Shown here: positions 46,893-49,040 of the stretch, one piece after another
Layout: each line of letters begins with the position of its first letter
Numbering within the stretch: position 1 is the first letter of the stretch
IMG/VR virus record: IMGVR_UViG_3300021256_000064
Coordinates: 1-64,000 of that record
Length of the DNA: 64,000 bases
Strand: one strand, 5' to 3'
Source of the DNA: a virus
The notes under the pieces: generated by a model
Seen by the model: only the letters and a program-made list of their open reading frames with translations
Database searches by the model: none
Told to the model about the DNA's origin: nothing
Translations under genes and position numbers: made by a program

Positions 46893-47026
46893 TTAGTAGA
46901 ATTATTTATCTTCGCTTCCGATTTGTCCGTCCTGTGAATTGTCTATGATGAGTCCTTCGTGGTAGTTAAGAAGGCTCTGGCCGAATGGTTAGAGGAACAC
47001 AAAGATGATATTGCGCCCTGATCGGT

Positions 47027-47067
47027 GGCCCCGACAGATCTGTCAGAGCTGCCGGGGCTTTTGATTT
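47027..47067 (+). terminator. GC-rich hairpin plus T-run, probably a terminator that came in with the GC-richer segment
   Basis: GGCCCCG ACAGATCTGT CAGAGCTG CCGGGGC followed by TTTTGATTT. Local GC is well above the window average. Confidence 0.4.
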
Positions 47068-47162
47068 GGTGCTACTGAATCATACTAGTATTATCTAAGT
47101 GATATCGGTACACCTTGAAATGGGCGTTTAGTTGACTTAGTAGAACACTTTAATTAACAAGA

Positions 47163-49040
47163 TTATCCAATTAATTTACCAACTTCTCCACTAAGCCATG
47201 CACCTAATTGCAAATACCCATTCAATGATGGATGCACACCATCTGTCCCAATTAGTGATTGAATTGTGTAACAATTTATTGGACTATTTTTCTGCTCGAT
47301 ATACGGAATATTGTAGTATTCACAGGCTTGTTTAAGTGTATCACTAAGCGTTTGTCTTGATACATATCCATCAGGATGTGACCGTTCTCCATACCAATAT
47401 TTAGGGAATGTTCCAACATTTCGTCCGTTATATGGTGCTATGACAATAAGCCGAATAGAAGGATTCTGTGTGAAAACATATGCAACAATTTTGTTAAATT
47501 GCCCCATTATAGTATTCTCGTCTGTGCTGTTCCATTCCCCCAAATCTTTATAGCCATCGTTTACACCATAGCACATTATCATAGCATTAAACTGAGTTAA
47601 GTCTTTACTTGATATGTTATCATAGGCAGTTTCGTCAATAAGTCCAAGATAGCCTTGACTTCCTACCCCATAATTAGTTGTTTCAATGTTAAGGTTATAG
47701 GCTAATATGGACGGAATACGATATTGTTCTTCAACTCGTGCAGACGCATTACCATCCTGACCATACATAATAGAATCTCCGAAACAAGCCATTTTAATAG
47801 CCGTTTTTCGTCCTCTACTCACCATACGCCATACACTTATAATAGTCGATCCTGAACCATATCTTGTATAGACCGAGGGAAGGAATGTATTCGTAGTGCC
47901 TAAAGCGTAGGCGATTTGCATCCTTACAGTTTCCATTTTATAAACATGCAAGAATCCTGTCTTAATAGGTGAGTTTGTATAACTGCGACTTGAAAGTAGA
48001 ACATAAACTCCTGAATCAGAAATATTATTTAGGTCAGTTCCATCTTCTAGAAAATTCATAAATTTTAGTGTGTCATACACCTTCGGTTTATGAAAATACA
48101 AAGAAGGACTGATGGTATATGACGCCGTCGGTTTTGAAGGCGACCTGAAACAAACCCATAACTGCTGTTCTGTGTCGATATGAATTTTTTTGGGTACATT
48201 GGATGTGTTTTCAAACACTCGATTCGCGTAAGATTGCGAAGAAGTACCATTAGGGCTTAAGTACGCTATCCCATTAGGTACACCAAACAGATAGTAATCT
48301 CCAGGTGTTAATGTTGTTAAGTTACCAAACGTCGTGTTGCCATAGTCGGTTGTGCCTATGGTATATGTTCCATCATTGTTATTTACAAGTGCCGTGTTAT
48401 TGTTTGATGCAATATTTTGAGAATTTATAACTTGTTCATCTTCAAATAAGTAACCTAAATCAGCCTTTACGGAATCGCCATAGTGATATGCCACACTAAG
48501 ATTCACCCCTTCTGCGGGAACAATAGCCACAGACTCGGTTTTCTGCATCTTAAACCTAATATAAGAATATGTGCCATCTGGAATGACCTCATGCGTTCCG
48601 CTCGTCAACTCAATATATCCAAGAAGCTGAGATGCGGGGTCAGTGTTACCACTATATTTGCAAATGTTTGCAATAAATCCTGTTTCAACACTTGCCGTAA
48701 TTTTCTGAACGTCTGCGGTCGAAAAATATCCTGTGCGGATGACTTTAGAGTTTGTGGCTTCTCCAGAGTAATTGAGATTTCCCTGTTCCCACACCAGTGG
48801 CAGAGAATATCGTCCATTAAGCTCTCTGTCTACGTCCCCTAAATCAGCCTTTAGTGCACTTATCTCATCTCCTGTCTTTTTGGCATCGGCAGCCTGTCCG
48901 GTCTGGGTGAGTGTGTTATCAATAACAACCTCTGTCCCGCCTGACTGAGCCGCATCTAGCATAATAAGCTATTGTTCTATATTATTTAATTTATCAGCAG
49001 TTACTGTGTCTCCAGTCTGCCAGGTTGTTGAATTATATGA
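47163..49040 (-). CDS. receptor-binding / tail-spike-like protein with C-terminal SGNH (GDSL) esterase domain; mosaic. The AT-rich N-terminus has one TAG, the GC-richer C-terminal 599 aa are TAG-free
   Basis: RBS AAAGGGGGAAAAATTATG. MSYNSTTWQTGDTVTADKLNNIEQ*LIMLDAAQSGG... SGNH motifs MACFGDSIMYG...GVNDGYKD...DGVHPS. The composition shifts to roughly 40-45% GC across 47163..48960. Confidence 0.65.

Follow-up and report, generated by a model that had tools for sequence, protein, structure and literature searches.

The window analysed in this study, i.e., the whole 64,000-nucleotide stretch at positions 1–64,000 of the IMG/VR virus record IMGVR_UViG_3300021256_000064, contains an accessory tail-fibre gene on the minus strand (47163–49043; 626 codons and a TAA stop), the product of which ends in a predicted SGNH/GDSL esterase domain. 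The gene closes a minus-strand block (58042–47163) and lies downstream of the genes encoding homologues of baseplate and tail proteins. Its ATG start codon (49043–49041) is located 8 nt after a strong Shine–Dalgarno sequence, AAGGGGG, and its codon 25 is an in-frame TAG (48969–48971, read 48971–48969). The gene is part of an inserted segment of ~2.2 kb (46896–49113, minus strand), which is placed between the stop codon of a 125-aa tail-operon gene (TAA, 49114–49116) and a native terminator. An identical fibre protein has been called in other metagenomes (P0001; contigs L001, L002 and L066). The comparisons described below make it very probable that this is an extra fibre gene, the distal esterase module of which was recently imported from phages in which TAG is not a sense codon.

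The GC content of the window is 31.1% overall, and the coverage by long open reading frames (ORFs) increases from 51% under the standard code to 95% when TAG is read through; this rise in coding density and the presence of TAG inside conserved domains indicate that TAG is a sense codon here. The genes of the DnaB-like helicase (1253–2797), NAD ligase (8013–10007) and topoisomerase II subunits (10060–14641), which belong to the replication genes, contain no in-frame TAG codons; the endolysin gene (15237–17525) contains 13 of them, the gene of tape-measure size (28050–37142, 3030 codons) contains 64, and each of the baseplate and tail genes within 49494–58042 contains 12–21, the density in late genes being 2.0 TAG per 100 codons. 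Protein similarity places the phage in a family of 120–150-kb phages, for which 56 IMG/VR loci were recovered; the closest relative is L004, with a baseplate protein that is 86% identical in amino acid sequence. The phage "phAss-1" and the Enterococcus EF1-like siphophages are distant relatives of the family; the baseplate protein of the phage studied here is only ~30% identical to that of phAss-1, for the group of which Clostridia hosts have been predicted (PMC10607447). The window can be regarded, with good confidence, as part of a ~140-kb siphophage of gut Bacillota that uses TAG as a sense codon in late genes.

The fibre gene is the only gene inside a well-delimited compositional island. 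A two-boundary likelihood change-point fit over 45600–51000 placed the island at 46913–49024, with a GC content of 0.399 inside versus 0.275 outside (2ΔlnL = 88.8) and with edge support intervals of 46894–46928 on the left and 48945–49064 on the right. Sliding 300-nt windows yielded GC values of 0.36–0.44 within the island and 0.23–0.30 in the flanks, and the GC content of the fibre gene corresponds to the 99th percentile among windows of equal length. The initial annotation, made from the sequence alone, had reported a rise from about 30% to about 40–45% across 46980–48960. The rise is real, and the composition is not uniform, but the measured values are ~27% and ~40%, 43–44% being reached only in 48550–49000, and the left edge lies at ~46900. 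The island is not unique in the window, as windows starting at 59251, 43531 and 61501 also reach a GC content of 0.38–0.395. The change in composition within the gene was described correctly: codons 1–27 have a GC content of 0.31 and a third-position GC content (GC3) of 0.22 and include the TAG at codon 25, whereas the 599 codons 28–626 have a GC content of 0.395 and a GC3 of 0.32 and contain no TAG at all.

The fibre gene is a mosaic composed of at least four pieces. The first of them, the AT-rich N-terminal anchor motif MSYNSTTWQTGDTVTADKLNNIEQ-TAG-LI (codons 1–27; 48963–49043, minus strand), has a codon usage that fits the late genes of the window best, and the motif is common to the proteins P0031 and P0064. 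Together with the Shine–Dalgarno sequence, it also resembles the start of the fibre gene of L061, a TAG-free phage with 41% GC (68% nucleotide identity, 44% at third positions). It is followed by a junction module (codons 28–70; 48834–48962, minus strand) with a GC content of 0.51, which carries the widespread fibre motif DNTLTQTGQAADAKKTGDEI..KADL and is likely to represent a recombination joint; many fibre proteins are 70–90% identical in amino acid sequence over this stretch alone, and the motif AADAKKTGDEI is common to dozens of fibre-like proteins that have different distal parts. Codons 71–191 (48470–48833, minus strand; GC 0.44, GC3 0.39) form an orphan segment, modelled with predicted local distance difference test (pLDDT) values below 50, where the best matches are merely 25–39% identical and the only close homologue is the same gene. 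Codons 192–626 and 45 nt of the 3′ flank (47118–48469, minus strand) are shared with the contig L003 at 94.8% nucleotide identity. In the 3′ non-coding part of the insert (46896–47162), positions 47118–47162 are common to L003, positions 47064–47137 match the 3′ flank of the fibre gene locus in L060 at 78% identity (74 nt), and the part 46896–47063, with 49% GC, matched no source. Across 100 homologues, obtained by a search of ~5.8 billion proteins, the breakpoints cluster near residues 30, 192, 324 and 401–412.

Contig L060 carries an alternative allele, or a sister fibre, on the same anchor. It aligns with positions 48839–48989 of the window at 92% nucleotide identity, including the identical ...GAACAATAGCTTATTATG... 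junction, and then diverges; the same AT-rich, TAG-bearing 5′ end is joined there to an unrelated TAG-free distal part of 560 residues. A single scan of JGI metagenomes for the TAG junction found the identical copy L066 and no further alleles.

The best non-self match to the fibre protein, P0002, is encoded on L003, a 9.8-kb contig with 39% GC and GC3 values of 0.31–0.43, which encodes an integrase, a holin and two PG_binding_1 lysins; none of its called genes has an in-frame TAG. The 94.8% DNA identity between window positions 47118–48469 and L003 extends over 1359 nt, and 11 of the 14 blocks of 100 nt are 96–100% identical, with a divergent patch (76–89%) over residues ~325–425. The GC3 of the module, 0.312, is practically that of its L003 homologue (0.313). 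Comparison of codon usage, which the initial annotation had proposed as a check, showed that codons 28–626 are the sole frame out of 37 that favours the codon model of L003 over those of both gene classes, late and early, in the window (synonymous-codon likelihood, late minus L003 −0.119 and early minus L003 −0.036). At the late-gene rate, 12 TAG codons would be expected in these 599 codons, and none is found. A test limited to glutamate codons is fairer than a test of TAG density, because TAG appears to encode glutamate in this phage (see below); TAG accounts for 0 of the 26 Glu codons in codons 28–626 versus a share of 24.6% in late genes (P = 6.6 × 10⁻⁴).

The same module has also entered a genome of quite different composition. 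In the siphophage contigs L064 and L065, which have 51% GC, part of a fibre gene matches the module at 87.5% identity and forms a low-GC island (0.35–0.45 versus 0.50–0.58); therefore, the cassette carries its own composition between unrelated genomes, remaining at ~38–40% GC in resident genomes with 31%, 39% and 51% GC. Searches in GenBank phages, including blastn with 46850–49120, megablast with 49100–60400 and tblastn with the fibre protein (E ≤ 1e-5), gave no matches, and an IMG/VR scan with the fibre protein gave no confirmed relatives. Scans of GTDB species representatives with the module and with a 12-sequence profile also yielded no relatives, so that neither a bacterial or prophage home of the module nor a host could be assigned from them.

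Comparison with related phages, another check proposed initially, indicated that the whole segment is additional. In L004 and L005, the counterparts of window positions 49150–49254 and 46793–46895 are contiguous, with no gene between them, and L004 is fully syntenic around this site. The earlier proposal of an acquired domain can thus be kept as regards the import, but the entire gene is extra in comparison with the relatives, and its imported part is itself a mosaic from at least three sources. The junctions of the insert are reproduced in L001 and L002, which are 99.96% identical to the window, and in L066, which is 100% identical over 49050–46840; the same junctions in independent assemblies argue against a chimera. 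An 8-nt direct repeat, ATAATTCT, is present at both ends of the insert (49117–49124 and 46898–46905), with TAA following directly at one end and after 2 nt at the other. As its probability by chance (P ~0.08) is non-significant, the repeat is not taken for a target-site duplication; at most, it is suggestive of microhomology-mediated insertion.

Fibre genes of similar construction recur in the family. At a hypervariable locus of the relatives, fibre genes have AT-rich, TAG-bearing first 100–900 codons, followed by a distal part that is GC3-rich (0.3–0.9) and TAG-poor. The fibre gene of L005 (12033–14132) has its sole TAG at codon 37 and that of L033 (19351–21780) at codon 21, the GC3 of the distal part of the L025 gene (14323–15576) reaches 0.76–0.88, and the same chimeric pattern is found in L008 (13086–17252), L009 (16004–18148) and L011 (17877–20462). 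The fibre genes of L004 and L020 are uniformly AT-rich and contain TAG throughout. The gene in the window thus exemplifies a process that has occurred repeatedly. Positions 17320–19350 of L033 also include an internal TAG-free patch with a GC3 of 0.64–0.78.

The initial annotation had also noticed GDSL/SGNH motifs in the C-terminal part of the fibre protein, and profile searches agree with this. The Pfam family PF13472 (Lipase_GDSL_2) matches residues 420–610 (E = 1.8e-13; 51.8 bits, curated cut-off 32.9), and PF00657 matches with 32.2 bits (cut-off 23.6), the two profiles together spanning residues 419–616. Four SGNH blocks were found, namely block I (FGDS, with S424), block II (GVGSQG, with G461), block III (GVND, with N495) and block V (DGVH, with D601 and H604), and the residues of these catalytic blocks are invariant across an alignment of 12 sequences. 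The SGNH/GDSL esterase domain at residues 417–626 (47166–47795, minus strand) has matches in Pfam, PHROG and Foldseek searches; the PHROG matches include both esterase and tail-fibre families. AlphaFold2 modelling, using 56 homologues, predicted residues 200–626 with pLDDT values above 90, including most of the domain 417–626. The model contains an all-β sandwich at residues 200–320 (48084–48446, minus strand; pLDDT above 90), which is a candidate carbohydrate-binding module, and a small β domain at residues 328–397.

The Foldseek search indicated that the nearest solved structures are carbohydrate acetyl-esterases, the top match being 7bxd (E = 4e-12; TM score 0.80, normalised by target length), together with enzymes of the family CE2, in which the β-sandwich precedes the SGNH domain in the same order. 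The best matches in a viral structure library are phage proteins with a terminal SGNH domain, some of them annotated as tail proteins, from Clostridium, Staphylococcus and other phages. Homologues of the fibre gene are also found in tail modules; P0004, for instance, is encoded after the tape-measure gene and distal-tail genes. The product may be an O-acetyl esterase that is mounted on the tail and acts on a glycan of the host surface, the substrate being suggested by the structural neighbours, and a putative carbohydrate O-acetyl esterase is a better description than the "receptor-binding or depolymerase" domain suggested initially. A homologue of the module, P0015, is encoded on the 104-kb phage-like contig L062 (33% GC) beside four adjacent esterase-type genes (L062:1–11824), three with SGNH and one with SASA domains, and this row of genes suggests an arsenal of glycan deacetylases.

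The 3′ end of the insert borders on an AT-rich hairpin with a 17-bp stem (46852–46888), flanked by an A-run and a T-run, which folds with −21.7 kcal/mol (z = −6.5) on one strand and −21.8 kcal/mol (z = −8.0) on the other and is conserved in L004 and L005. It serves as a native bidirectional terminator of convergent fibre genes, and the accessory fibre gene appears to use this resident terminator. A GC-rich hairpin at 47027–47067 (−33.6 kcal/mol, z = −4.6) had been proposed as the terminator of the gene. The hairpin itself is real, but only in the plus-strand direction does a T-run, CTTTTGATTTGG, come after it, and the minus-strand sequence after the stem is CACCGATCAGGGC, so it was rejected as a canonical intrinsic terminator of the fibre gene. 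Six-frame translation showed that this hairpin and T-run follow a 25-codon plus-strand frame ending in ...VVKKALAEWLEEHKDDIAP-TGA (46943–47067 in total), an apparent fossil end of a convergent neighbour gene, co-imported with its terminator. A degenerate pattern of the ORF remnant 46958–47021 gave no matches in IMG/VR, and the fossil region had no match elsewhere. An Rfam scan of 46400–49400 gave only chance-level snoRNA matches, and the hairpin region thus corresponds to no known RNA; a consensus terminator scan found no terminators, and a promoter scan found 15 promoter-like sites compared to 12.5 expected from shuffled sequence.

Several other genes of the window share some of these features. 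The convergent neighbour (45907–46848, plus strand) is a native-looking fibre-like gene, AT-rich, with six TAG codons and three repeats of NPVQNKIIKQALD; its N-terminus corresponds to the conserved anchor of the relatives' chimeric fibres. A GC-richer cluster (0.36–0.40) at 43687–45564 on the plus strand encodes three small conserved proteins with few or no TAG codons, which are 88–98% identical in L004; one of them is rich in Gly, Asn and Cys and has the C-terminal end ...CNCGNGCCGNGFYN. A TAG-free gene at 58784–60355 (minus strand; GC 0.40, GC3 0.315) with intermediate codon usage encodes a DUF2828/DUF7788 vWA-like protein, which is 97% identical in amino acid sequence to its L004 homologue and, hence, is conserved in the lineage rather than recently imported.

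The identity of the amino acid inserted at TAG bears directly on the codon tests. The genes behind the reading of TAG in this phage include 15237–17525, 5956–6618, 42274–42765 and 49494–58042, and the relatives compared are the loci L004–L059. When 16 proteins of the window were aligned to relatives, TAG in conserved columns coincided with Glu in 14 cases, with Asp in two and with Ser in one, and with none of the 60 conserved Gln positions. One TAG in the GH73 domain of the endolysin falls at the position of the catalytic Glu in FlgJ (AQAALETGWG), and the E-to-A mutant 3k3t is among the matches. In a ThyX-like protein with 10 TAG codons, Glu dominates at six positions among 120 homologues, one position having Glu in 74 of 74 sequences; this count sets aside close relatives with Q at 5–9 of the 10 sites, which are evidently translations made with code 15. 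For a RuvC-like protein, no PDB relatives were detectable by sequence. The conventional reading of TAG as Gln (code 15) was rejected for the window, as the conserved columns are mostly Glu columns and Gln columns are represented by 0 of 60.

The same approach divided the family into two classes. The Glu-like class includes the window and the loci L004, L020, L030, L029, L033, L011, L024, L036, L021, L009, L005 and L007; the Gln-like class, which serves as an internal positive control, includes L023, L047, L026, L035, L044, L040, L042, L043 and L059; other members of the family have no in-frame TAG at all. Judging from these alignments, TAG appears to encode glutamate, not glutamine, in the phage of the window, residue 25 of the fibre probably being Glu, and the family seems to comprise two different reassignments of TAG. 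Among phages with a code unlike that of the host, only TAG-to-Gln and TGA-to-Trp changes were described by Borges et al. (10.1101/2021.08.26.457843), the paper on phAss-1 took TAG as Gln by assumption (PMC10607447), and no report of an amber-to-Glu code in phages was found in the literature. Public collections contain code-15 translations of proteins from this phage group with Gln at every TAG (P0104–P0111, P0114, P0115, P0124 and P0130), and P0001, the database copy of the fibre protein, has Q at residue 25; if TAG does stand for Glu, such public entries would be systematically mistranslated.

None of the 13 tRNAs of the window (60397–63397) has a CUA anticodon. Suppressor tRNAs with this anticodon are present in two relatives of the Glu-like class (L020:3024–3099, L024:1017–1092 and L024:2383–2457); if the ends assigned by ARAGORN are right, their acceptor stems contain a U1–A72 pair and a G3–U70 wobble. 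L024 also possesses a tRNA with a UUA anticodon. The relation of these suppressor tRNAs to tRNA-Glu or tRNA-Gln is not readable from their sequence. A possible route to glutamate exists in Bacillota that lack GlnRS, where a CUA suppressor charged by GluRS and untouched by GatCAB would insert Glu. The choice of glutamine codons differs strongly between the gene classes of the window: late genes contain 387 CAA and 48 CAG and TAG-free genes contain 83 CAA and 73 CAG, and some of the latter, such as that at 21862–24390 (2 CAA, 26 CAG), use CAG almost exclusively.

The origin of the accessory fibre gene can be envisaged as follows. A 2.2-kb segment would have been inserted at the end of the baseplate/tail operon, between the last stop codon and the native bidirectional terminator. 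Codons 1–27 would represent an anchor with the AT-rich codon usage of the phage itself and one TAG, and hence a resident of a recoded genome, and the remainder would have been assembled by recombination from the fibres of phages without TAG as a sense codon, with joints at conserved motifs near residues 28–70, 192 and 325–425. The last exchange, comprising residues 192–626, would be recent, given that most blocks retain 96–100% nucleotide identity and that no amelioration can be detected. Such an import is possible because a donor where TAG is a stop only supplies a TAG-free gene, and the stop codon here is TAA; in the reverse direction, the transfer of TAG-bearing genes would fail. The N-terminus would mount the protein on the tail, the β-sandwich may bind carbohydrate and the SGNH serine esterase would be presented to the host surface, where it would strip O-acetyl groups from teichoic acid, capsule or peptidoglycan, so that a receptor could be reached or unmasked. 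The TAG in the anchor would tie the full-length, virion-attachable protein to the late code switch. The proposal of the initial annotation that the module came recently from a non-recoded source is thus supported by five independent lines, namely the L003 copy, the GC3 and codon usage, the island in L064 and L065, the empty sites in the relatives and the L060 allele. A wider suggestion, that modules flow one way across the code boundary and are repeatedly grafted onto a TAG-bearing anchor in a family where TAG has been reassigned twice (to Gln and, in this phage, to Glu), can be made with less assurance, although the balance of the data leans towards it.

Several observations weigh against this interpretation. 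Within a distance of 10 kb from the baseplate gene, none of the 56 related loci contains the anchor motif; a regular-expression search for it over 59 loci matched in the same phage only, and a degenerate DNA pattern for the anchor found no match in IMG/VR. Twenty-seven codons are too few to prove amelioration of the 5′ end, and low GC content near gene starts is a general translational feature. The stop codons in the 9.8 kb of L003 are all TAA, and its standard code is deduced from the TAG-free fibre, holin and lysin genes; moreover, L003 may be a fellow recipient of the module, not its donor. Residues 1–190 of the fibre protein are poorly modelled, and both attachment to the virion and esterase activity are predictions.

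The point on L003 leads to an alternative, in which the transfer had the reverse direction or a third party was involved, i.e., the module is native to the recoded lineage or to an unsampled genome with ~38% GC, and L003 and L064 are recipients. A TAG-free module meets no obstacle to export, L064 and L065 clearly took it in as a foreign low-GC block, and no GTDB species representative possesses it, so that no ultimate home can be named. This alternative is nevertheless unlikely, since in GC3 and codon usage the module matches L003 and differs from either class of genes in the window, the gene is missing from the closest recoded relatives and a native late gene would hold about six TAG codons among 26 Glu codons. 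The gene might instead be native throughout and owe its composition to its amino acid content or to selection, e.g., for high expression or for being needed before the code switch. The existence of other TAG-free, GC-richer genes conserved in relatives, such as that at 58784–60355, means that composition alone is no proof of import, but most blocks of the module are 96–100% identical at the nucleotide level to a contig of a TAG-free phage, close relatives lack the gene, the shift in composition sits in third codon positions and TAG at codon 25 ties full-length translation to the code switch; a native origin therefore has very little probability.

A different reading concerns the function, namely that the enzyme is free or lysis-associated, e.g., an O-acetyl esterase for peptidoglycan or teichoic acid that aids the endolysin, perhaps translated from Met28 by ribosomes that terminate at TAG25 and re-initiate 6 nt further on. 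Peptidoglycan-deacetylating enzymes are known among SGNH esterases, ATG28 lies two codons past the TAG in an arrangement identical in L060 and gene callers using the standard code begin the ORF at ATG28 (P0062). At the same time, the gene is located at the end of the baseplate operon and not beside the endolysin gene (15237–17525), its homologues adjoin tape-measure and distal-tail genes in tail modules, the protein contains fibre motifs (the N-terminal anchor and AADAKKTGDEI) and has a PHROG tail-fibre match, and a strong Shine–Dalgarno sequence precedes ATG1 and none precedes ATG28, which makes a non-virion enzyme quite improbable. As to a misjoin of a fragment of another phage during metagenomic assembly, it may be noted that L001, L002 and L066 all stop at 46840 and that L066, which starts at 49050, consists of the insert alone, so the assembly graphs break around the segment. 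These ends are beside a perfect 17-bp palindrome, and they may be due to graph breaks at the palindrome or to polymorphism of the cassette in the population. The window, L001 and L002 all read across the 5′ junction with identical sequence, all four assemblies, which originate from different samples, continue through the 3′ junction into the native terminator, and the gene keeps an uninterrupted frame with a 5′ end of native style, leaving an assembly chimera as an extremely remote explanation. An accessory fibre gene with an imported distal module is preferred here to all of these alternatives.

Exchange of fibre tips and tail proteins with SGNH domains are both known; exchange across a code boundary is less usual. 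Fibres and tailspikes with terminal SGNH domains, such as those of the Clostridium phages CPS1 and CPD2 and of the Staphylococcus phages 187 and G15, share with the protein described here the N-terminal attachment, the β domains, the terminal SGNH domain with Ser, Gly, Asn and His blocks and the location of the gene in a tail module; the SGNH tail protein gp63.1 of Escherichia coli phage G7C deacetylates the O-antigen. In contrast to these examples, the gene in the window belongs to a genome where TAG is a sense codon, the recoded codon is found in the anchor alone and similarity to GenBank phages is below detection. The likeness to CE2 and other acetyl-esterases (2wao, 2waa, 4dev and 7bxd; Foldseek E = 1e-9 to 4e-12) concerns structure only and consists in the β-sandwich followed by the SGNH fold; sequence identity is 8–21%, and the fibre protein has an additional small β domain and a fibre-like N-terminus of 190 residues.

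Mosaic exchange of the distal domains of receptor-binding proteins is a classical feature of tail-fibre evolution, and the present case shows its usual signs: an N-terminal anchor that is conserved, distal modules that have been exchanged, breakpoints in conserved linker motifs and more than one allele at the locus. Unlike in the classical case, the exchange took place between genomes that differ in genetic code and by ~8–12 points in GC content, and the import is marked by both composition and codons. Morons are extra genes inserted between existing phage genes, and the fibre gene is similar to them in being a discrete, intergenic gene of deviant composition at the end of an operon, just ahead of a terminator. 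It differs in that the scans gave no convincing evidence of a separate promoter or terminator and in that it encodes a tail component and does not serve lysogenic conversion. The recoded gut siphophages named "Phassvirus" (PMC10607447) resemble the phage of the window in genome size (~135–140 kb), a tape measure of ~3000 codons, a variable fibre locus and Bacillota hosts. Both they and the model of Borges et al., where recoding gates late and lysis genes (10.1101/2021.08.26.457843), agree with it in the occurrence of TAG in structural and lysis genes and not in replication genes, but TAG is Gln in those papers, in contrast to the evidence for Glu in this phage. The words "horizontal" and "tail fiber" are absent from the text of the Borges et al. 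preprint.

The data suggest that reassignment of a stop codon does not prevent phages from acquiring receptor-binding modules of phages in which TAG has no sense meaning, and the difference in code makes the limits of the imported part easy to recognise. Since the chimeric architecture recurs in the fibre genes of relatives, TAG density together with GC3 could be used for tracing recent host-range modules in recoded phages. The presence of the esterase cassette in genomes with 31%, 39% and 51% GC points to a shared O-acetylated surface glycan as its target in gut Bacillota. The reading of TAG as Glu in this phage, with Gln in its relatives, would matter more than the import if confirmed; it would represent the first amber-to-glutamate code reported for a phage and would bear on the evolution of the genetic code and on the annotation of phage genomes.

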